Assembly (NCBI RefSeq): GCF_050920415.1
Contig: NZ_CP169309.1
Reading direction: 5' to 3' (one strand)
Source of the DNA: Escherichia coli
Lineage (GTDB): Bacteria > Pseudomonadota > Gammaproteobacteria > Enterobacterales > Enterobacteriaceae
Length of the DNA stretch: 64,000 nucleotides
Below, piece after piece: positions 6,465 to 60,277 of this stretch. A program made the position numbers and the translations under genes. Every line of letters starts with the position of its first letter. Position 1 is the stretch's first letter. A model generated the notes under the pieces. The model was not told where the DNA came from and did not search any database. It was given only the letters and a program-made list of their open reading frames with translations.

Positions 6465-6581
6465 GAAACGGAGCGGCACCTCTTTTAACCCTTGAAGTCA
6501 CTGCCCGTTTCGAGAGTTTCTCAACTCGAATAACTAAAGCCAACGTGAACTTTTGCGGATCTCCAGGATCCGCTTTTTTTT
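6465..6581 (+). ncRNA. oxyS: OxyS small regulatory RNA (oxidative-stress sRNA)
   Basis: Sequence gaaacggagcggcacctcttttaacccttgaagtcactgcccgtttcgagagtttctcaactcgaataactaaagccaacgtgaacttttgcggatctccaggatccgc followed by a T-run matches OxyS as I recall it; divergent from oxyR and ending in an intrinsic terminator. Confidence 0.9.
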
Positions 6582-6620
6582 ATTCTACAGGCCCACAGCA
6601 AGAGAGCCTGATAGTAACAG

Positions 6621-7904
6621 TTACTCAATCCGATCTTTGACAATAAAGAAGTAACACAGCGCCCCGGTGAACGTCACACAGGCCGCGATAACCAGCGCCA
6701 GATTAAACGAGTGCGTGGTATCCACTACCCAACCGGTTACGATCGGAGCAAAGGAAGCAAAAACAAAACTGCCAAAGTTTTGAATCCCGGCGATGGAAGC
6801 CACTTTTGTTTCTGACACCATCACCTGCACCAGTCCCCATGCAGATGTTCCCGCGAAATGCACGCAGAACAGCGCCATTGAGATAAACGCTACAGCCTGG
6901 GCTGGCGAGGAGGATTGCACGACCAGCAACGTGCCTAATGCCGACATCATCAAACCGCAAACAATAGCCGTTTTACGCGTCTTCGCCAGGTCGTAGCCTT
7001 TTTTCGCCAGCCGATCGACAACAATACCGTTAACCCACATCCCGACCGCCGCCGCGAGGAAAGGAATCGCCGCCACCCAACCGGTTTTCGCCAGACTGAA
7101 GCCTTGCTCGGCTTGTAAATAACCGGGTAACCACGCGATGTAGAGCCAACCGGTATAATTGACGCCAGAGAAACCTAAAATCATCCCCCAGGTTGTCCGA
7201 TGCTTAAACAGCGCCAGCCACTCGCTAAATTGTAATTGTGGACGCGGTTTAACCGGCGCGGAGAGATAGGTCCGTTCTTCGTCGGTCAGGACAAACTGCG
7301 CCCGGTTGCGATACCACGCGTACCAACAGATCCCAACCAGAATCCCCGCCACGCCGATGATGACGAACATTGCCCGCCAGCCCCATGCCAGCTGCATCAA
7401 TACAAGAGCAGGAGGCGCAATAGCCTGACCGATAACGGTAGATGAGTTAAAAATCCCCAGCGCCGTGCCGCGTTCTTTTTGCGCATACCAGTCGGTGATC
7501 GACTTTACTCCCGCAGGCATAAATGGCGCTTCGCCAATACCCAGACCGATACGCATTAAAATAAAGTGGCTAAAAGAATTAACCATTCCTGTTAATGCCT
7601 GCATTAATGACCAGAATATTAAGCCTGCGCCTAAAACTATTCGTGGGCCAAAGCGGTCTAGCAAAATACCGGAAGGGAGTTGTGAAAAACCATAAGACAG
7701 AGAAAATGCAGAAAGCAAAACGCCAAATTCTGTCGCCGATAATCCTAACTCGCCACGAATCGCTTCGCCTGCCACGCTCAATGACGAACGGTCGAGGAAA
7801 TTAACGATCCCCGCCATAAATAATAAAACCAGCGTTACTGTCTGAATACGACGAATCCGTTGCGGTTTATTACCCGCAACACTGGTTGACACATCAACGT
7901 CCAT
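6621..7904 (-). CDS. MFS transporter, anion:cation symporter (ACS) type, resembling hexuronate/aldonate/galactonate-family sugar-acid permeases
   Basis: 427 aa with about 12 predicted TM segments and MFS signature regions (GIVNFLDRSSLSVAG, LLDRFGPR). Accessory gene between oxyS and argH. Confidence 0.75.
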   Translation of the reverse strand: MDVDVSTSVAGNKPQRIRRIQTVTLVLLFMAGIVNFLDRSSLSVAGEAIRGELGLSATEFGVLLSAFSLSYGFSQLPSGILLDRFGPRIVLGAGLIFWSLMQALTGMVNSFSHFILMRIGLGIGEAPFMPAGVKSITDWYAQKERGTALGIFNSSTVIGQAIAPPALVLMQLAWGWRAMFVIIGVAGILVGICWYAWYRNRAQFVLTDEERTYLSAPVKPRPQLQFSEWLALFKHRTTWGMILGFSGVNYTGWLYIAWLPGYLQAEQGFSLAKTGWVAAIPFLAAAVGMWVNGIVVDRLAKKGYDLAKTRKTAIVCGLMMSALGTLLVVQSSSPAQAVAFISMALFCVHFAGTSAWGLVQVMVSETKVASIAGIQNFGSFVFASFAPIVTGWVVDTTHSFNLALVIAACVTFTGALCYFFIVKDRIE

Positions 7905-7970
7905 TTTTAGCTCCTTGAGCGGAATTAATCGATTTGCTGACTATTCAGAAAATAATTAAGCGAACCGTTA

Positions 7971-9185
7971 TTACCAGTTCCACAATGTGCCATCTTCCAG
8001 TCGTGCGACGGGGAGATACGCCGGGTCATACGGATATTTCGCCGCCAGTTTCTCATCGAAAGAAATACCCAGCCCCGGTTCATCGCCTGGGTGCATATAA
8101 CCTTCATCGAAGCGCCAGCTGTGCGGGAAGACTTCAAGCATTTGTTCGGAATAGCCCATGTACTCCTGAACGCCAAAGTTTGGCACCCAGAGGTCAAAAT
8201 GCAGCGCCGCCGCATGACAAACAGGCGATAAATCTGAAGGGCCATGCGAACCGGTACGTACCTGATAAAGCGATGCAAAATCGGCAATCCGTCGCATCCC
8301 GGTAATGCCGCCTGCATGGGTAATCGTCGTGCGAATATAGTCAATCAGCTGCTCTTCGATTAACTGCTTGCAGTCCCAGATACTGTTAAACACTTCACCG
8401 ACCGCAATCGGCGTCACAGTATGCTGGCGAATCAGACGAAAACATTCCTGGTTCTCGGCAGGCGTCGGATCTTCCATCCAGAACAGGCGGTAATCCTCAA
8501 TGCTCTTCCCAAAGCGCGCCGCTTCGATAGGAGTCAGGCGATGGTGCATGTCATGCAACAGATGTTCGTTAAAACCGAACTTATTACGCACCGCTTCAAA
8601 TAACTTCGGTGTAAAATCGAGATACTTTTCTGAAGACCACAACTGCTCTTCCGGCCACAGGCCTTTGGTTGCCGGTTCATACGCCAGTCCTTTGCCCTTC
8701 GCCAGGCCATAAGTGGTTTGCATACCCGGTACACCGCACTGCACACGAATCGCCTTAAAGCCCATCAGCTGGTGCTTTGCATAGTCTTCAAGGACTTCAT
8801 CAATCGTGCGCCCGGTGGTGTGGCAATAAACCATCACGCCTTCACGAGAAGCCCCACCAAGCAGTTGATACAATGGCATATTTGCCGCTTTGGCTTTGAT
8901 ATCCCACAACGCCATATCAATGGCAGAAATGGCCGACATCGTGACGGGGCCACGTCGCCAGTAAGCACCTTTATAAAAGAATTGCCAGATATCTTCGATA
9001 CGGCTGGCATCGCGGCCAATTAATTGTGGACAAAGATGATCTTTCAGATAAGAAGCGACCGACAATTCGCGACCATTTAATGTGGCATCTCCCAATCCAC
9101 AAAGTCCGCTTGCAGTGGTTATTTTAAGCGTAACGAAATTACGTCTTGGGCAAGTAACAAAAACATCTGCAGCAATAATTTTCAT
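7971..9185 (-). CDS. Enolase-superfamily dehydratase, D-mannonate dehydratase (ManD) / RspA-like
   Basis: Conserved start [40 protein letters not shown] at 9185 with an AGGAG RBS (the ORF track starts 20 codons upstream at 9245). The sequence is typical of the mandelate racemase/muconate lactonizing enzyme family. Sits 66 bp upstream of the MFS gene on the same strand. Confidence 0.75.
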
Positions 9186-9670
9186 TATTGCAATCTCCTG
9201 TGTTGTAAATAGATGCTTCAAACTTAATTTTACGCCTACTACCATACAAGAGAGAAAGAGCGATTATTCAACCGTGATCACATTAAAAATAAAAATTTCC
9301 GCCGAGGAGAAAAAACACCCTCAAAAACCACCTGAATAATTAACCATTATCGTTAAAACAACACGTTAAATAATCACATAACAAACTCCATTAATCATTA
9401 AATATGAGCGCAGCAATAGAAATGAATTATATTCAATTAATTAAAATATGTATTGATTGATGTATTGAAAATATGATTTTCATGGGGAGAGTGAAGGTAA
9501 AGAAGACGCAAGAATAAAAAGGAATATGACAAATAATAGTTCTGGTTGGGCGTTAAATTTAAGGTCACCAGAATGCTGACAAATTTCTGCCTGAGGCAGT
9601 CCGCCTACGTAGTGTCGCTACTTTATAGGCGTGGTAAGCTCCCCATTTTCAGGGGAGCAATATAAACCAA

Positions 9671-11044
9671 TTACCCCAACCGCGCCTGCGCAAAAGCAAT
9701 CGCCTGCGCCACCTGCTGCGGGGAGACGCCGCCTTTTGCCGCACGCTTGTCGAGGCACGATTGCAGCGACAGAATCGGATAGACATCTTCGCCAATCACC
9801 TCGCTGAATTTCTGCAACTCACTGAGCGGCAGTTCTTCCAGCGGTTTGCCCTGACGAATGGCTTCCACCACCGCTTCACCAACAATATGGTGCGCCTCGC
9901 GGAACGGCACACCTTTCGCCACCAGGTAATCCGCCAGTTCAGTGGCGTTCGCATACCCCTGCTGCGCCGCTTCCTGGCAACGTGGGCGTTTCACCTGAAT
10001 CCCGTCCAGCACCAGCGCCGCCATATGCAGGCAGTCCAGCCAGGTATCGAGCGCATCGAACAGACCTTCTTTGTCTTCCTGCATATCTTTGTTATAGGCC
10101 AACGGCAGACCTTTCAGCGTCATCATCATGCCGGTCAACGCGCCCTGAACACGACCGCATTTACCGCGAATCAACTCCAGCGCATCCGGGTTTTTCTTCT
10201 GCGGCATTAATGATGAACCGGAAGTAACACGATCAGAAAGCTCCACAAAACCCGCTTCGCCGGTGTTAAAGAAAATCAGATCTTCGGCAAAACGCGACAA
10301 ATGCACCATACCGATAGCGGCGGCAGATAGCAGTTCCAGCACGTGGTCGCGGTCAGAAACGCTGTCGAGACTGTTACGGGTCGCCGAGGCAAAGCCCAGC
10401 CAGCCTGCTAACTGTTCACGGTCGATTTCATAGGCCGTTCCCGCCAGGGCGCCACAGCCTAGCGGGCTGACATCCAGACGCTTAAGCGCATCCTGCAAAC
10501 GGCTTTCATCACGCGCCAGCATCTCAACATAGGCCAGGCACCAGTGCGCAAACGTCACCGGCTGGGCGCGTTGCAGGTGAGTGTAACCAGGCATTACCGC
10601 GTCCTGATTATTCTGCGCGGTTTCCACCAGCGCCGATTGTAACTGTCGGTTAGCCGTCAGCAACTCGCTAACGGTATCCTTGCACCACAGTTTCAGGTCA
10701 GTCGCTACCTGATCATTACGGCTACGCCCGGTATGCAGTTTTTTGCCTAACTGGCCCACTTTGTCGATCAGTTTGCCTTCCACCCAGCTATGGATATCTT
10801 CGGCGTCGCTTTCAAGAATTTGTTGTGGCCTGGCGCGAACATCTTCCAGCAGCACATTGAGCGCCTCTTCCAGTTGCACCTGTTCTTCTGCGGTTAACAC
10901 GCCTACCGTTACCAGCGCTTTGGACCAGGCCACAGAGCCAACAATATCCTGCTCCGCCAGACGGTAATCAAAGCGCAGTGAGTCGTTGAATTGTTTAAAC
11001 CGTTGATCTGCTGCCTGGGTAAAACGCCCGCCCCAAAGTGCCAT
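9671..11044 (-). CDS. argH: Argininosuccinate lyase
   Basis: 457 aa, [37 protein letters not shown]...; fumarate lyase family signature [12 protein letters not shown]. Confidence 0.96.
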
Positions 11045-36976: not shown

Positions 36977-38104
36977 ATGTCAAATCTGTTTGCGATTAAT
37001 GTCTGTAAAACGTTCGGTTGTCGAAATTTGGGATTGGCCTCATCGGAAGATTACAGTTGGCCAGACTATAAACTGGGTTTTCCGGCACTACACTGCCAGG
37101 CATGCGGAAGTTACCCCCCTTTGTTTGATGAACAACAATTTCGTGACTGGTTGTCAGTTCACATGACTACGTGTGCCATAGAAACAGGGCATTTTTGTCC
37201 ATCATGCTATTGTAAAGAAAAGATTTTTTATGGCCACAACCCGCAGGGAACACAACGCGTTCAATGCCGTTCATGCAAAAAAGTCTGGACTCCGAAACAG
37301 CAGCCAGCAAGAGAAATTACGTATCCCCAGTCCATTGAAACCGTTCAACTGTTCATGCCCTTTCAAGGAGCCAGCGCACTACAAAAGCTCTATGTTTTAG
37401 TCAGTCTTGACGCCACTCGTGGCAACATCCTTCATCTCTCCACGAATTATACGCAACATCAGACAGGAGACAGTCTGCGGTACAGTTACAGAGGCAATAC
37501 AGAACCAACTGAGCACCATAGCGATATTGTGCAGAGGGTAGATATGCGTGAAGCGCAATTCTTGCGCCGGAGCCAGTTCGATGAAATTCAGTATGGCAGT
37601 GCTGTGCTCAAGCGCAATGGCAAGGGAGCCATACTACGCCCGGTTATCACGGCACACGGGCATTTCAGAATACTGAAAATCCGCTTTCCACATGTCAAAA
37701 CGCATATCATTTCACACGAATGTTTTCTGAGAGGCGCAATTATTACAGCCTGGGCAGATCAGTTCCGCCAACAACAAGGCGAACTTTGGTTCGTAGAAGA
37801 AGAAATCAGCGACCGTAACGCTGATATTCCCTGGCATTTTCAGGGAACGACATACCATGGTTGGTGGCAAAATCAGTGGCAACGCTGGGGGCAGGGGAAT
37901 AACAGCAAGATGGTCTGCCTGCTCACAGGAGTCTCCTTAGAAAGGGGCGCAAATGTTTCTCTGGCAACCAGTCGTTGCTTTATCACATGGCTGACAGACC
38001 AACACGACTTTACCCAAAGCGCGTTATTATCCGCAGGTCGCGTAACGAAAATGCTGACCTCACTGGCGTTAAAATACAATGAATCGCTCAATCCATCTTG
38101 TTAG
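36977..38104 (+). CDS. Hypothetical cysteine-rich protein with an IS1 InsA-like N-terminal zinc ribbon
   Basis: 375 aa. N-terminal 100 aa carry CxxxxC, CxxC, CxxC and CxxC motifs (CKTFGC, CQAC, CPSC, CRSC); the stretch CPSC..RVQCRSCKKVW resembles the IS1 InsA zinc finger CPSC..RYLCSHCRKTW as I recall it. No recognisable DDE or HTH motif seen by eye in the remaining 270 aa. Flanked by AT-rich DNA. Confidence 0.6.
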   Translation: MSNLFAINVCKTFGCRNLGLASSEDYSWPDYKLGFPALHCQACGSYPPLFDEQQFRDWLSVHMTTCAIETGHFCPSCYCKEKIFYGHNPQGTQRVQCRSCKKVWTPKQQPAREITYPQSIETVQLFMPFQGASALQKLYVLVSLDATRGNILHLSTNYTQHQTGDSLRYSYRGNTEPTEHHSDIVQRVDMREAQFLRRSQFDEIQYGSAVLKRNGKGAILRPVITAHGHFRILKIRFPHVKTHIISHECFLRGAIITAWADQFRQQQGELWFVEEEISDRNADIPWHFQGTTYHGWWQNQWQRWGQGNNSKMVCLLTGVSLERGANVSLATSRCFITWLTDQHDFTQSALLSAGRVTKMLTSLALKYNESLNPSC

Positions 38105-38333
38105 TCAATACACTCGACAAACGACCATAAATTAATGGGATCACTATTTCTCATTTAATTAAATATATGAATGTATGACTGAAAAATATAATCACAGTCA
38201 ATGTTTAATTAATAACATTATTTGTTACTAAGATCACATAATACTTTCCTGACCTATGCTTACATAAAAATAAGACACGGAGTTCCTTTTATTTAAATAA
38301 TTCAACCAATGTAACAACCCCTATCAAGGAGGG

Positions 38334-39887
38334 ATGATGAGAACTGTATTTACGACTTTATCAGTCATATTCAGCGTGATGTTTTCTCACAGTATACTAG
38401 CTCAGGACGTTACTATTTATTATACGAATGATATTCACGCACATGTCAATCCGGCAAAAATTCCCGCTGTTGATAAGAACAGACTTGTAGGTGGTATGGC
38501 TAATATCGCAGGCATCGTTAATGAAGCGAAGAAAAAAAACAAAGATGTCTTTTTCTTTGATGCAGGCGACTATTTTACCGGTCCGTATATCAGTACCCTG
38601 ACCAAAGGTGAAGCTATTATTGATATCATGAACACCATGCCCTTTGATGCGGTGTCCGTTGGTAATCACGAGTTCGATCACGGCGTGCCCAATATGGTAT
38701 CTCAGTTATCAAAAGCAAAATTCCCCATTCTGCTGGGAAATATTTACTACACCGATACAAATAAACCAGTTTGGGATCATCCGTGGACCATTATCGAAAA
38801 AGATGGTTTAAAGATTGGTGTGATTGGATTGCATGGTGCATTCGCTTTCTATGATACAGTCGCGGCAAAAGCACGTGAAGGCGTAGAAGCCAGAGACGAA
38901 ATTAAATATTTAAATAAAGCACTTGCAGAATTAAAAGGTAAAGTCGACATTACCGTTTTGCTAATTCACGAAGGTGTTCCGGCGCGTCAATCAAGCTTTG
39001 GTAGTAAAGATGTGGAGCGGCTACTACAGGCAGATATTGAGACAGCTAAAAAAGTGAATGGTGTTGATGTCTTAATTACCGGTCACGCACATGTCGGAAC
39101 ACCGCAACCAATAAAAGTTAATAACACATTAATTGTATCTACCGATGCATACGGCACCGACATCGGAAAACTTGTGCTTGATTACAATCCGAAAACAAAG
39201 AAAATTGATAGTTATAATGGTGAGTTAATCACCATCTTTGCAGATCAATTTAAACCTGACACCATCGTTCAAAATACTATCGATAAATGGAGCGTAAAAC
39301 TTAACAAAATAACACAGGAAGTTGTCGGCCATTCTCCCGTAGTTTTAACACGTGAGTATGGCAGTTCTTCTTCTACCGGTAACCTTATTCTGGATGCAAT
39401 GATGGAAAAAACACCTGATGCCATTGCCGGATTTCAAAATAGCGGTGGGATGCGAGCTGATTTTCCTAAAGGTGATATCACACTGGGAGATGTTATTAGC
39501 ACATTCCCCTTTAATAATGACCTCATCGAGATGGATTTGACGGGCCGCGATCTCAAATCGTTGATGACGCATGCAACCAATCTAACTAACGGTGTGTTAC
39601 AGGTTTCAAAAAGCGTTGCGGTTGTCTATGACAGCAAAAAACCACTCAACCAACGGTTAATCTCTTTCACCATTAACGGCAAACCCGTGGAAGATAATCA
39701 AACATATCGTATTGCCACGCACTCCTTTTGTGCCAGTGGTGGTGACGGTTTTGAAGCATTTTTGAATGGAAAAAATGTGAAGACGATACCGGGAACAACC
39801 TCGGCGGAATCAATCATCGATTATTTCAAAAATCATAAACCTGTCACCCCAGACTTAACTAAACGAGTCATGGACGTCGCCAAATAA
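38334..39887 (+). CDS. Periplasmic 5'-nucleotidase/metallophosphatase (UshA/CpdB family), paralog B
   Basis: 517 aa; signal peptide MMRTVFTTLSVIFSVMFSHSILA; all metallophosphatase motifs present (NDIHAH, DAGDYF, GNHEFD, GHAH) plus a C-terminal nucleotidase domain. Strong RBS aggaggg; the start may be the second ATG at 38337. Confidence 0.8.
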   Translation: MMRTVFTTLSVIFSVMFSHSILAQDVTIYYTNDIHAHVNPAKIPAVDKNRLVGGMANIAGIVNEAKKKNKDVFFFDAGDYFTGPYISTLTKGEAIIDIMNTMPFDAVSVGNHEFDHGVPNMVSQLSKAKFPILLGNIYYTDTNKPVWDHPWTIIEKDGLKIGVIGLHGAFAFYDTVAAKAREGVEARDEIKYLNKALAELKGKVDITVLLIHEGVPARQSSFGSKDVERLLQADIETAKKVNGVDVLITGHAHVGTPQPIKVNNTLIVSTDAYGTDIGKLVLDYNPKTKKIDSYNGELITIFADQFKPDTIVQNTIDKWSVKLNKITQEVVGHSPVVLTREYGSSSSTGNLILDAMMEKTPDAIAGFQNSGGMRADFPKGDITLGDVISTFPFNNDLIEMDLTGRDLKSLMTHATNLTNGVLQVSKSVAVVYDSKKPLNQRLISFTINGKPVEDNQTYRIATHSFCASGGDGFEAFLNGKNVKTIPGTTSAESIIDYFKNHKPVTPDLTKRVMDVAK

Positions 39888-39921: not shown

Positions 39922-41547
39922 ATGCGAATGAAAACAGTGCAGCGTACTTTACTTGCCGCAACATTGCTGACTATTTTTTCGGTCTCAGTCATGGCGCAGG
40001 ATGGCACGATTATTTATACAAATGATCTTCACACTCATGTGGATTCTTATAAAGTGCCGTATATCGCAGACGGAAAACGCGACATTGGCGGCTTTGCCAA
40101 TATATCTACTTTAGTAAAACAAGAGAAAGCGAAAAATAAAGCCACCTTTTATTTTGATGCTGGAGACTATTTCACCGGCCCTTATATCAGCAGTCTGACA
40201 AAGGGCGAAGCAATAATTGACATTATGAATACCATGCCTTTTGACGCAGTATCAATCGGCAATCATGAGTTTGACCATGGCTGGGATAATGCCCTGCGAC
40301 AATTAAGCAAAGCGAATTTTCCTGTTTTATTGGGCAATGTTTATCATAAAGAGAGTGAGAAACCCTTCTGGAACAAGCCCTACACCATCCTGGAAAAAGA
40401 TGGCATCAAGATTGGTATTATTGGGCTACACGGCGTATTTGCATTTAATGATACGGTCTCGGAGCTCTCTCTCCAGGGACTCGATAATGACAATAATAAC
40501 CGCTTTGATAAATCTTCCGAGACCCTTAAGAATCAGGGGATTGAAGCACGTGATGAAGTGAAGTATTTGCAGCATTATATCGACGAGTTACGTGATAAGG
40601 TTGACCTCACTGTGGCGCTGGTTCATGAAGGCGTTCCGGCGCGTCAGTCCAGCATTGGCAATACAGATGTTAGACGCGCTCTTGATAAAGATATTCAAAC
40701 CGCTAGCAAGGTGAAAGGATTGGATATTCTGATTACCGGGCATGCCCACGTCGGAACGCCAGAACCAATCAAAGTCGGCAACACCTTAATCCTTTCGACT
40801 GATAGTGGCGGTATCGATATTGGTAAATTAGTCCTTGATGTCAACCCTACAGCTCGTACCCATAAAATGAAGAGCTTTGAGCTGAAAACAGTTTATGCCG
40901 ATGAATGGATACCCGATCCAACGACACAAAAAGTTATCAATGGCTGGAATAAAAAACTGGCGGATATTGTACGCCAACCAGTGGGTGAATCATCGATTGT
41001 ATTAACTCGCGCCTATGGTGAGTCATCGCAACTAGGCAACCTGTTTACCGATGCAATGCTTGTCGCTGCTCCGACTGCACAGATTGCATTGATAAACTCC
41101 GGCAGCTTACGTGCGGATATAAATGCAGGCACGATTACCTTTGGCGACATTACCAGTACATTCCCCTTCAAGAATGAACTTACTGAAATGGATCTCAGCG
41201 GTAAGGATCTGCGTAACCTACTGGAACACGGGGCATCGCTTACCAATGGCATCCTGCAAATGTCAAAAGGCGCAGAAATGCGCTATACCCCGCAGAAACC
41301 AGTAGGTCAGCGCATAGTATCTTTTAAAATTAATGGTGAAGAGATCGTTGATACGAATATTTACCATGTTGCAACAACGACTTTCCTTGCACTGGGGGGC
41401 GATGGTTTTCTGGCATTCAAAGAAGGGAAAAATGTTCAGGTCCGCGCCAGAAATAACATGTCCGATGTCGTGATCGATTATTTGAAGAAAGGCCACAAGA
41501 TTACGCCTGCACAGGTAAATGAAATGCGGGTGGACGTTAGCAAATAA
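39922..41547 (+). CDS. Periplasmic 5'-nucleotidase/metallophosphatase (UshA/CpdB family), paralog C
   Basis: 541 aa; signal peptide MRMKTVQRTLLAATLLTIFSVSVMA; metallophosphatase motifs intact. The N-terminal domain is about 80-85% identical to the frameshifted paralog and carries an extra N/D-rich segment of about 25 aa. Confidence 0.8.
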   Translation: MRMKTVQRTLLAATLLTIFSVSVMAQDGTIIYTNDLHTHVDSYKVPYIADGKRDIGGFANISTLVKQEKAKNKATFYFDAGDYFTGPYISSLTKGEAIIDIMNTMPFDAVSIGNHEFDHGWDNALRQLSKANFPVLLGNVYHKESEKPFWNKPYTILEKDGIKIGIIGLHGVFAFNDTVSELSLQGLDNDNNNRFDKSSETLKNQGIEARDEVKYLQHYIDELRDKVDLTVALVHEGVPARQSSIGNTDVRRALDKDIQTASKVKGLDILITGHAHVGTPEPIKVGNTLILSTDSGGIDIGKLVLDVNPTARTHKMKSFELKTVYADEWIPDPTTQKVINGWNKKLADIVRQPVGESSIVLTRAYGESSQLGNLFTDAMLVAAPTAQIALINSGSLRADINAGTITFGDITSTFPFKNELTEMDLSGKDLRNLLEHGASLTNGILQMSKGAEMRYTPQKPVGQRIVSFKINGEEIVDTNIYHVATTTFLALGGDGFLAFKEGKNVQVRARNNMSDVVIDYLKKGHKITPAQVNEMRVDVSK

Positions 41548-41558
41548 TAAAAAATTAT

Positions 41559-41594
41559 AATGCCATTCATTCACTGAATGGCATTATTTTTCTC
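41559..41594 (+). terminator. Intrinsic terminator after nucleotidase paralog C
   Basis: aatgccattca ttcac tgaatggcatt followed by a T-rich run. Confidence 0.6.
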
Positions 41595-41624
41595 TAAATC
41601 AACAATAAATAATGAGATATATTT

Positions 41625-47618: not shown

Positions 47619-47870
<252 letters not shown>

Positions 47871-47910
47871 CTAACGCCAGACACCACGCGATGTTTAAAG
47901 TATAGTTTGA

Positions 47911-52489: not shown

Positions 52490-52513
52490 CCCCGTACTTT
52501 TGTACGGGGTTTG
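52490..52513 (+). terminator. Stem-loop with T-run in the ftsN-hslV intergenic region / hslV leader
   Basis: ccccgtac tttt gtacgggg ttt. Confidence 0.55.
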
Positions 52514-52544
52514 TACTCTGTATTCGTAACCAAGGGGTCAGCTC

Positions 52545-53075
52545 GTGACAACTATAGTAAGCGTACGCCGTAACGGCCATGTGGTCATCGCTGGTGATGG
52601 TCAGGCCACGTTGGGCAATACCGTAATGAAAGGTAACGTGAAAAAGGTCCGCCGTCTGTACAACGACAAAGTCATCGCGGGCTTTGCGGGCGGTACTGCG
52701 GATGCTTTTACGCTGTTCGAACTGTTTGAACGTAAACTGGAAATGCATCAGGGCCATCTGGTCAAAGCCGCCGTTGAGCTGGCAAAAGACTGGCGTACCG
52801 ATCGCATGTTACGCAAACTTGAAGCACTGCTGGCAGTCGCGGATGAAACTGCATCGCTTATCATCACCGGTAACGGTGACGTGGTGCAGCCAGAAAACGA
52901 TCTTATTGCTATCGGCTCCGGCGGCCCTTACGCCCAGGCTGCGGCGCGCGCGCTGTTAGAAAACACTGAATTGAGTGCTCGTGAAATTGCTGAAAAGGCG
53001 TTGGATATTGCAGGCGACATTTGCATCTATACCAACCATTTCCACACCATCGAAGAATTAAGCTACAAAGCGTAA
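52545..53075 (+). CDS. hslV: ATP-dependent protease subunit HslV
   Basis: 176 aa, [39 protein letters not shown]... Confidence 0.97.
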
Positions 53076-55501: not shown

Positions 55502-55987
55502 ATGAAATACGATACTTCCGAGCTTTGTGACATCTATCAAGAAGATGTTAACGTCGTGGAACCGCTGTTCTCCAACTTTGGCGGACGGGCGTCGTTTGGC
55601 GGACAAATAATCACGGTAAAATGTTTCGAGGACAACGGGTTGCTGTACGATCTGCTCGAACAGAATGGCCGTGGTCGTGTTCTCGTCGTTGACGGCGGTG
55701 GTTCTGTTCGTCGCGCACTGGTCGATGCTGAGCTGGCGCGTCTGGCAGTACAAAATGAATGGGAAGGCCTGGTCATTTACGGCGCGGTGCGTCAGGTAGA
55801 TGACCTGGAAGAGCTGGATATCGGCATCCAGGCGATGGCAGCAATTCCAGTCGGTGCCGCTGGCGAAGGCATTGGCGAAAGCGATGTCCGCGTTAATTTT
55901 GGCGGCGTCACCTTCTTCTCCGGTGACCATCTTTATGCCGACAATACCGGAATTATTCTTTCAGAAGATCCGCTGGATATTGAATAA
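55502..55987 (+). CDS. rraA: RNase E inhibitor RraA
   Basis: 161 aa, [56 protein letters not shown]... Confidence 0.95.
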
Positions 55988-56003
55988 GTACCTGCCATGC
56001 GTT

Positions 56004-56030
56004 AAAAGGGGAATTAAATTCCCCTTTTTT
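56004..56030. terminator. Intrinsic terminator after rraA
   Basis: aaaagggg aattaaatt cccctttttt. Confidence 0.7.
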
Positions 56031-56245
56031 ATATGCAAAATATTCATAAAGACTATCGTTTGTTTTTATTTAATTCATTTTAAATATCAATAGTTCACAT
56101 CTGACAATATAAATTAATTATCGATAAATCATTTCATAAAAATATGCAGCATTAAAAATTAATGCTATATGGTAAATTAACTATTCTGGGAATAGGGATA
56201 TGAATCATCGTTAGTAGCGAACGTATTAAATAATAATGGATTGAT

Positions 56246-56524
56246 ATGAAATACGTTATCTTATTAATACTATGGATAATAACTACTTTTCTTAGTCATC
56301 TTCAGCACAGCAACCTACTGTCTGGAGATCCTGGCATGGTTGGCGAGTATATCGGTTCAGTATTTCTGGGGCCGTTGTTACTTCCCGTGCTTGTGTCAGG
56401 TATTCTGTGCGTATTTATTAAAAAAAAACGTAACTTCGCCAGTTTTACTCGCGGGTGCTGTTGGGTATTGGGAATCCTGCTTTTATCCAAAGTCGGCAAT
56501 ACGTTTCGTATGTTTACCCCGTGA
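56246..56524 (+). CDS. Hypothetical small membrane protein (92 aa, 2-3 predicted TM helices)
   Basis: ORF MKYVILLILWIITTFLSHL.. in a very AT-rich insertion between rraA and zapB. No homolog recognised, so the coding status is unverified. Confidence 0.45.
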   Translation: MKYVILLILWIITTFLSHLQHSNLLSGDPGMVGEYIGSVFLGPLLLPVLVSGILCVFIKKKRNFASFTRGCCWVLGILLLSKVGNTFRMFTP

Positions 56525-57670: not shown

Positions 57671-60047
<2,377 letters not shown>

Positions 60048-60083
60048 TATCAGGCATCTGAACCAATTGCCTGATACTGATCG

Positions 60084-60170
60084 CCTGATGCGACGCTTAC
60101 GCGTCTTATCAGGCCTACGAGCCGATGCCATTTTGTGTAGGCCGGATAAGGCGTTCACGCCGCATCCGGC
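60084..60170. repeat. BIME/REP cluster between glpK and glpX
   Basis: gcctgatgcgacgcttacgcgtcttatcaggcctac and gtaggccggataaggcgttcacgccgcatccggc, classic REP palindromes. Confidence 0.75.
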
Positions 60171-60277
60171 ATGTCGTAGACTCTGAAATCGTGCGGGGGC
60201 AACCCCCGCACACATCAATAATCCCGCCCTTCCCCTGTGCTACACTTCGCGCCATTCCTTACTGCTTAGAGTTTGCT

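Follow-up and report, generated by a model that had tools for sequence, protein, structure and literature searches.

The non-coding DNA that separates argH from manD in the Escherichia coli chromosome analysed here is probably a composite region, bordering an old accessory islet on its upstream side and operating under the following proposed control scheme. Judged from sequence comparison, manD and the adjoining MFS transporter gene would be transcribed from a weak, CRP-dependent sigma-70 promoter, and this dependence would make the pair subject to catabolite control. The repressor RspR would find only the right half-site of its operator (TCTCTTGTAT), so that repression is probably weakened or lost. 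Further upstream, a 34-nt box at −137 to −170 appears to be under purifying selection and would most likely bind a second CRP dimer or another regulator, while the 28%-GC DNA around it would be poorly constrained spacer that could also host nucleoid proteins of the H-NS type. The argH-proximal 130 nt would lie outside the manD control region; there, a stem-loop and a decayed REP/BIME element would end or stabilise the argCBH transcript, insulating the two units from each other.

The window, by which we mean the whole stretch of 64,000 nucleotides that was analysed, is E. coli chromosome. When 701 bases spanning the gap were used as a query, a match was obtained in 5425 of the 5426 complete E. 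coli genomes; one strain, NZ_CP169399.1, departs from the window at only two positions within the first 19.8 kb. RefSeq annotation and Rfam together give the minus-strand order argC-argB-argH, gap, manD, MFS transporter gene. By RefSeq annotation argH occupies 9671-11044; manD, encoding 404 aa, lies at 7971-9185 (RefSeq, NCBIfam and the alignment with RspA); and the transporter gene, second in the module and encoding 427 aa, lies at 6621-7904. All three genes are on one strand, and they are followed by oxyS at 6465-6574 on the plus strand, with oxyR beyond it. A reading of this DNA made from the letters alone, hereafter the sequence-only reading, had described an argH stop followed by a dehydratase-MFS operon, which RefSeq annotation and Rfam show to be right in kind. 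Its dehydratase start at 9245 was wrong. RefSeq annotation places the manD ATG at 9185; counted from this ATG, the NCBIfam models span residues 1-404 end to end and K-12 RspA aligns with ManD over 1-404, and an AGGAG sequence stands 9 nt upstream of it. The ATG at 9245, which had been the choice of the program that listed open reading frames, falls within the promoter −35 element. The true argH-manD intergenic region is 9186-9670, 485 bp at 34% GC, and the description of most of it as a 425-bp leader does not hold, the transcribed leader being by homology only about 30 nt long and the rest mostly upstream DNA.

The interval between argH and oxyS exists as three alleles. The K-12 allele is a 54-bp spacer that holds the argH terminator. 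In the module-only allele, carried by approximately 1714 of 5426 complete E. coli genomes (~32%), this spacer is replaced by about 3.1 kb comprising manD and the MFS gene. The third allele, found in about 150 genomes (~3% of complete E. coli genomes), is a larger island of 12.6 kb in which araD, a DeoR regulator, an ABC transporter, an epimerase, an FGGY kinase and a 488-bp gap precede the same manD-MFS pair. In the window the islet with manD and the transporter gene extends from about 6575 to 9655, and homology to K-12 extends only as far as the argH stop codon at one end and the U-run of the oxyS terminator at the other. The K-12 54-bp spacer shows no homology to the islet, which means that neither of these two alleles arose from the other by simple deletion. 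In one strain an IS1 element stands in the place of manD.

The manD-MFS arrangement is also present in E. whittamii and in Escherichia sp. E1V33. Compared with E. whittamii, the window has a nucleotide identity of 92.9% in manD and 93.8% in the MFS gene, against 93.9% in argH and 93.7% in oxyR. Since the module has diverged from E. whittamii to the same extent as argH and oxyR, it is old rather than a recent import, and we infer that it has occupied the argH-oxyS site since before the lineages of the window and E. whittamii split. Its cargo has a GC content of 50.1% (manD) and 51.2% (MFS gene), with a GC3 of 0.51. The suggestion that this DNA was horizontally acquired therefore survives only in part: the module is accessory, occurring alone in ~32% of genomes and within the island in ~3%, but its GC content is native and its divergence from E. 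whittamii is that of the core genes. Plasmid and phage collections gave no true match to the AT-rich DNA or to the module, two apparent plasmid matches being E. coli replicons of 1 Mb and 4.8 Mb rather than true plasmid relatives. The literature search returned nothing specific on the islet, on manD beside argH/oxyR, or on the ManD of CFT073.

The relatives of the module genes lie at rspA loci. ManD is a D-mannonate dehydratase of the enolase superfamily (NCBIfam) and a paralogue of K-12 RspA, with 91% protein and 80% DNA identity; its protein identity to the Kluyvera enzyme is 93.6%. The nearest ManD proteins of other genera are all rspA orthologues, encoded at a locus of the order ynfA-rspA-rspB-MFS-ydfI...rspR. 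The transporter belongs to the D-galactonate-transporter subfamily, and its identification as YdfJ was ruled out by an identity of 21%. Orthologues of the transporter were found at 85-89% identity, and those examined (87-89%) sit within the rspA loci of Kluyvera, Raoultella and Cedecea. In Kluyvera cryocrescens, as also in Raoultella and Cedecea, the MFS orthologue (87% aa identity) directly follows manD; the Kluyvera order ynfA-manD-MFS thus resembles the manD-MFS order of the window, and the promoter motif described below is common to both. Unlike the window, the loci of these three genera keep an intact ATACTTGTAT box and adjoin the rspR gene, and their leaders are 111-180 bp long with 39-46% GC. 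The gap is not recognisable as a decayed copy of ynfA, the upstream neighbour in the ancestral locus: a tblastn search gave nothing better than E = 0.08.

By alignment, the manD-proximal ~100 nt of the gap is a diverged copy of the rspA promoter. The DNA upstream of manD or rspA, and in Raoultella of the MFS gene as well, was aligned for K-12, Kluyvera, Enterobacter, Yokenella, Salmonella, Cedecea and Raoultella together with two Escherichia manD alleles, and the manD-proximal ~100 nt align with the rspA promoter of K-12 and of the six other genera. A 13-mer, CTTGTATGGTAGT (9250-9238, minus strand), is identical in 10 of 10 aligned promoters; in eight of nine its distance from the ATG is 64-67 nt, and in the window it is 65 nt. 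It occurs once in the 64-kb window, the chance expectation being about 1e-5 per 485-nt region. The homology is drawn from this multi-genus motif and its register rather than from pairwise BLAST, in which the manD promoter compared with rspA promoters is not significant alone (E = 0.26-0.69).

The start of K-12 rspA has been mapped by primer extension to a C located 30 nt upstream of the ATG (Shimada et al. 2021, PMC8249747). Transferred by positional homology, this predicts that manD transcription starts at about 9215, at a C 30 nt before its ATG. The predicted −35 element, TTGTAT at 9249-9244, is assigned by homology to rspAp, and 17 nt after it the predicted −10 element, TAAGTT at 9226-9221, aligns with TAGATT of K-12 and lies in an invariant run. 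The resulting 5' UTR, 9186-9214, is nearly invariant, has a fold energy of 0 kcal/mol and contains a strong Shine-Dalgarno sequence, AGGAG, at 9199-9195 ahead of the ATG, all of these elements being on the minus strand. The core promoter is weak, with 7 of 12 matches to consensus, which is why a scan of the gap reports no sigma-70 site at or above 9/12; such a core would fit an activator-dependent promoter. An alternative assignment, with TATGGT as the −10 element and a class II CRP site, was dropped in favour of the register of the mapped K-12 start.

The manD promoter and rspAp of K-12 thus share the gene family that lies downstream (91% aa identity between ManD and RspA), an identical CTTGTATGGTAGT at an equal distance from the ATG, the sequence TGTGATCAC 32 nt upstream of the 13-mer, and a single register that holds the −35 TTGTAT and a C 30 nt before the ATG. 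They differ in the −10 element, which is TAGATT at rspA and TAAGTT at manD, and in their upstream DNA, which is unrelated: that of rspA is 205 bp long and that of manD 485 bp, more AT-rich and equipped with an extra invariant box. The downstream partner of rspA is rspB and that of manD the MFS transporter gene, and rspA is located at ynfA-rspA whereas manD is located at argH-oxyS. On these comparisons, we regard the manD promoter as belonging to a known promoter type, of which it is a newly described copy; its repressor box is broken, and it has an additional conserved box upstream. The proposal that the gap might contain a cis-regulatory element was well founded, its last ~100 nt being homologous to the mapped rspA promoter and a second invariant box standing further upstream.

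The broken repressor box concerns RspR (YdfH), a regulator of the GntR family that protects 31 bp at K-12 rspAp, centred on the palindrome ATACnnGTAT. RspR represses rspA from a box that overlies the −35 element, and it is classed as a single-target regulator in K-12 (PMC8249747); a reporter study treats both the RspR and the CRP sites at rspAp as known (bioRxiv 10.1101/2025.05.13.653802). In the window, the stretch posed as a candidate RspR target and counterpart of the rspA site is TCTCTTGTATGGTAGTAG, and the putative operator remnant around the −35 element (9253-9244, minus strand) has the right half only. Unlike rspAp of K-12, the manD copy is without the left half of the palindrome: ATAC is replaced by TCTC in every Escherichia manD leader (11/11). 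All eleven leaders have the same remnant except that of O104:H4, which has TCTATTGTAT, and all rspA-type promoters examined have the intact form except one Raoultella copy with ATTCTTGTAT. The palindrome ATACnnGTAT does not occur anywhere in the 64-kb window. Since the palindrome defined by footprinting has lost its left half here, the hold of RspR on manD is probably weakened or lost. The core gene rspR is found in 5417 of 5426 E. coli genomes, so the repressor itself is available to manD-carrying strains. The invariant 13-mer reaches beyond the published RspR box, so that RspR may contact the DNA otherwise than in the palindrome model and may still bind.

To define the conserved elements upstream of the core promoter, we use an alignment of 11 leaders (seven E. 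coli module-only alleles, E. whittamii, Escherichia sp. E1V33 and two larger-island alleles), in which the invariant runs coincide with the promoter elements and with a distal box. The CRP-type site is a 28-nt invariant run at 9262-9289 (minus strand). Its half-site TGTGATCAC (9282-9274) carries TGTGA at 9282-9278, and its core TGTGATCACGGTTGAA (9282-9267) is centred at about −60 from the predicted start, the geometry of a class I site. TGTGA lies 32-33 nt upstream of the 13-mer in eight of nine rspA-type promoters, K-12 included, and 32 nt upstream in the window. The assignment is to be read with the facts that only one half is good, that the right half matches at 2/5 and that TGTGA is expected by chance about once per 485 bp.

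The distal invariant box, TTTGTTATGTGATTATTTAACGTGTTGTTTTAAC (9352-9385, minus strand), is 34 nt long and occupies about −137 to −170 relative to the predicted start, in the form TTTGTTATGTGATTATTTAAC..GTTGTTTTAAC (9385-9352), with runs of 21 and 11 nt that are invariant in the 11 leaders. It holds a second TGTGA (9378-9374), 96 bp from the first, as well as a TTTAACG direct repeat, and its arm GATTATTTAAC recurs in inverted orientation, as GTTGAATAATC, next to the proximal CRP-type site. Within a collection of species-representative genomes, the exact pattern of the box was found in Escherichia only. The box stands out from its surroundings in comparisons with both the larger-island allele and E. 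whittamii, the latter showing a third-codon identity of 0.81-0.84. Across the promoter (9186-9289) identity is 98-99% to the larger-island allele and 98% to E. whittamii; in the AT-rich, moderately conserved spacer between box and promoter (9290-9351) it is 71-76% and 84%; in the box (9352-9385) it rises to 94-100% and 100%; from 9386 to 9540 it is 58-60% and 79%; and from 9541 to 9670 the larger-island allele is unalignable and E. whittamii has 65%. This pattern suggests that the box is constrained amid DNA that evolves neutrally or faster, and that it probably binds something, either a further factor for which it would be a candidate operator or CRP, for which it would be a candidate second half-site. 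Recent recombination that included manD, rather than constraint, could account in part for the near-identity of the alleles over 9186-9289, an objection that applies less to the distal box, flanked as it is by diverged DNA at both ends.

Upstream of the box, the AT-rich spacer at 9386-9540 is weakly conserved and ORF-free, has more C than G on the transcribed strand (minus) and is unstructured (fold z = +0.51); it could bind nucleoid proteins. When the AT-rich part of the gap was compared with the rspA loci of seven genera, with the larger island and with the rest of the window, the leader of the larger island was the sole match.

The argH end of the gap differs in composition and structure. 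Located 13 nt past the argH stop codon, a hairpin with a 7-bp GC stem (GCTCCCC-TGAAAAT-GGGGAGC, 9638-9658, minus strand), found in both the MFE and the centroid fold, is kept in all module-only leaders and is likely the 3' end or a stabilising stem of the argCBH transcript. As it is not followed by a U-run, it is not a canonical intrinsic terminator. The argH-proximal stretch as a whole (130-146 nt) folds far better than its shuffles (z = −3.68) and forms four consecutive stable hairpins, none with a U-run following. A segment derived from REP/BIME DNA lies at 9587-9637 (minus strand), where the tail of a second unit precedes the REP unit. By the criterion used, an imperfect palindrome of ~35 bp matching GTAGGCCGGATAAGGCG...GCATCCGGCA and located extragenically after an operon, a REP unit is present in the 497-bp allele and in E. 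whittamii, and the window copy (GTAGGCGGA/CTGCCTCAGGCAG) is a remnant with a 12-bp internal deletion. Most module-only leaders are 497 bp long and have a near-canonical unit, GTAGGCGGATAAGGCGTTTACGCCGCATCAGGCAG, at the position of 9587-9637; E. whittamii and Escherichia sp. E1V33 have an inverted REP pair at the argH end; and the segment of the window aligns with a canonical REP at window positions 60138-60172. The argH-proximal DNA of most strains thus resembles the REP/BIME elements at operon 3' ends in having a near-canonical extragenic unit, from which the window departs in that its unit is a remnant. The last part exclusive to the module-only allele is 9541-9586 (minus strand), an A/T-rich palindromic stretch (AAATTTGTCA...TGACCTTAAATTT; TTCTGGT-N20-ACCAGAA) that forms a hairpin in the MFE fold; homology to the larger island starts at about 9540. 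Two kinds of operator were considered and rejected. A UxuR/ExuR-type site AATTGGTTTATATTGC beside the argH stop is a half-site only, and its G is T in most strains; the ARG boxes TGAATAAT and AATTATTCA have at least three mismatches and lack a partner at the proper spacing, nor is copy b conserved.

With an argH hairpin that lacks a U-tract, and with the K-12 argH terminator lying in the very 54 bp that the module allele replaces, the gap might instead be mainly argH 3' UTR, through which argCBH transcription would read across the hairpins and the REP remnant into manD-MFS, coupling the pair to arginine control. All the genes are on the same strand, and a terminator scan of the gap found no intrinsic terminator and no promoter-plus-terminator pair on either strand. 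Such read-through would have to pass four consecutive stable hairpins and then an unstructured tract in which C exceeds G (skew +0.41 on the plus strand, 9400-9599), a Rho-type sequence by inference, and manD keeps a conserved promoter of its own. argCBH transcripts may end either at the hairpin stems or, to judge from the GC skew, by Rho in the C-rich unstructured tract, and we think it improbable that the gap serves mainly as a read-through region. A better case, if still an unlikely one, can be made for the view that only the ~100-nt promoter matters and that the upstream 250-350 bp are functionless filler left by the rearrangements that made the alleles, with the distal box conserved by chance or hitch-hiking. 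The stretch 9386-9540, at 58-60% identity between alleles and 79% to E. whittamii, is near or below the neutral third-codon level, and it has no homology elsewhere, no structure and no ORF. What this view accommodates poorly is the 34-nt box, conserved at 94-100% in all 11 leaders between flanks at 58-84%, a contrast that is hard to obtain by chance or from a single recombination tract.

The base composition of the gap invites two further explanations. Between 9246 and 9670 the GC content is 34.6%, whereas the window has 51.1%, manD 50.1% and argH 56.2%; an equally low value is reached in only 1.06% of all 425-bp windows. The sequence-only reading was therefore correct in calling this DNA AT-rich in contrast to its flanking genes; the composition is not uniform, the AT-rich part being 9186-9540, with 28.3% GC at 9290-9540, 46.9% at 9541-9670 and 56.9% in the hairpin/REP part at 9587-9658. 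The gap is the longest of the 38 annotated intergenic regions of the window (485 bp; median 154) and has the fifth lowest GC content among them (0.344; median 0.426), so that its GC is low beside genes and ordinary to low for intergenic DNA. One explanation takes the AT-rich tract as primarily an H-NS nucleation site and manD-MFS as a xenogeneic unit silenced until an anti-silencer displaces H-NS. With ~350 bp at 28-34% GC in a 51% GC genome, a module whose presence varies among strains and a weak core promoter unaccompanied by any strong consensus promoter, the locus does resemble the H-NS-bound promoters of horizontally acquired genes. It departs from them in its cargo, which is not AT-rich and has normal E. 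coli composition (50-51% GC, GC3 0.51), and in its age, the module being as diverged from E. whittamii as the core flanks and so not recently acquired. In addition, four other intergenic regions of the window are more AT-rich, and the high-affinity H-NS motif (TCGATAAATT-type) is not enriched in the gap, where an uninformative scan gave two matches with two mismatches each. Silencing as the primary role of the tract seems to us rather unlikely, though of the alternatives to the composite region it is the one we would least readily set aside; binding of H-NS in the AT-rich tract is plausible, and silencing would be compatible with the composite region as an added layer.

The length of the gap, and the presence in it of mechanical ORFs of 15-43 aa, could also point to a concealed small RNA, a riboswitch-like structured leader, or a small protein or leader peptide, and the sequence-only reading had raised the first of these. 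Rfam was searched with 8000-11000 at E ≤ 1 and, at gathering thresholds, with the whole window; neither search gave a match in the gap, which is also devoid of a consensus-strength promoter and, as noted, of a promoter-plus-terminator pair on either strand. The fold of the AT-rich parts is not significant (z = −0.97 and +0.51), and the homologous 30-nt 5' UTR has zero folding energy. The remark that the gap has no convincing ORF was borne out: every frame contains 6-15 stop codons, and of the nine mechanical ORFs of at least 15 aa none is preserved in start, frame and stop throughout the 11 related leaders. We accordingly give a hidden RNA or peptide hardly any credence.

The composite region remains our preferred reading, and a more speculative history can be attached to it. 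After an rspA-type pair was copied to the argH-oxyS site, its control might have been rewired through the half-loss of the RspR operator and the recruitment of the Escherichia-specific box; we consider this conceivable but unlikely. Under such rewiring the box would bind a further regulator, or a distal CRP dimer working against H-NS.

The importance of these findings is modest. For annotation, they correct the start of manD and identify a conspicuous AT-rich gap as an ordinary promoter region. For the chromosome, they make the argH-oxyS junction a three-allele hotspot and the manD module an old polymorphism rather than a recent island. About one third of E. coli genomes carry a second rspA-like promoter, at which the action of RspR is directly testable; if RspR still binds there, the "single-target" regulator of K-12 would have a second target in the module-carrying strains, again about one third. 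If control has indeed been rewired, a third of E. coli strains would possess a second, differently controlled ManD pathway. The locus is also a clean natural example of how regulation diverges once a catabolic pair has moved: the core promoter is kept, the repressor operator is broken, and a conserved box has been gained upstream.

Mechanical ORF calling extends manD upstream to an in-frame ATG at window 9245-9243, yielding an ORF of 424 aa (7971-9245). This ATG falls within the −35/RspR-box motif TTGTATGG; it is an artefact that traps ORF callers and does not serve as the manD start codon.

Further upstream, the CRP-type site and the distal invariant box are joined by an 11-nt inverted repeat, GTTGAATAATC / GATTATTTAAC (minus strand), whose arms at window 9262-9272 and 9365-9375 are complementary at 10 of 11 positions, are separated by 92 nt and are both contained within invariant runs. 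The repeat could represent the paired arms of a looping operator, or it could have arisen by chance in AT-rich DNA.

Two copies of the rspA-type promoter motif were detected in the Raoultella ornithinolytica locus L011 (6890-7000 and 8285-8426), one upstream of the MFS gene and the other upstream of manD, in the layout TGTGA, 32 nt, CTTGTATGGTAGT. Since the motif is present twice, the promoter was duplicated in the Raoultella locus too.

A canonical REP unit, GTAGGCCGGATAAGGCGTTCACGCCGCATCCGGCA, located at window 60138-60172 inside the intergenic region 60047-60276, was the standard against which the REP remnant of the argH-manD gap was compared. Three other intergenic regions of the window (38104-38335, 41547-41623 and 55987-56334) are, at 21-28% GC, more AT-rich than the argH-manD gap. 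Two of them belong to an accessory cluster between metF and metL, which contains three genes of the 5'-nucleotidase family, one of these frameshifted, together with a hypothetical gene and a tsx-like gene that is truncated. The third separates rraA from a pseudogene that lies upstream of zapB. Rfam elements were present as expected at 1285-1474, 47838-47890 and 52490-52547, comprising the cobalamin riboswitch upstream of btuB, the L31 ribosomal-protein leader upstream of rpmE and the ClpQY (hslVU) promoter element.

The closest genome, NZ_CP169399.1, shows 2 differences from the window over the first 19.8 kb. One of these, at window 7643, falls within the MFS gene, where the window carries G and NZ_CP169399.1 carries A. 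The annotation of NZ_CP169399.1 treats its MFS gene as a pseudogene that contains an internal stop; in the window, the transporter is intact (427 aa).

The argH-oxyS junction (window 6575-9655) is a hotspot in E. coli, where three alleles were observed: a 54-bp spacer, as in K-12; the 3.1-kb manD-MFS islet; and a 12.6-kb island with extra genes encoding AraD, a DeoR regulator, an ABC sugar transporter, an L-ribulose-5-P 3-epimerase and an FGGY kinase. In one strain, manD is replaced by IS1, along with the 5' end of the MFS gene.
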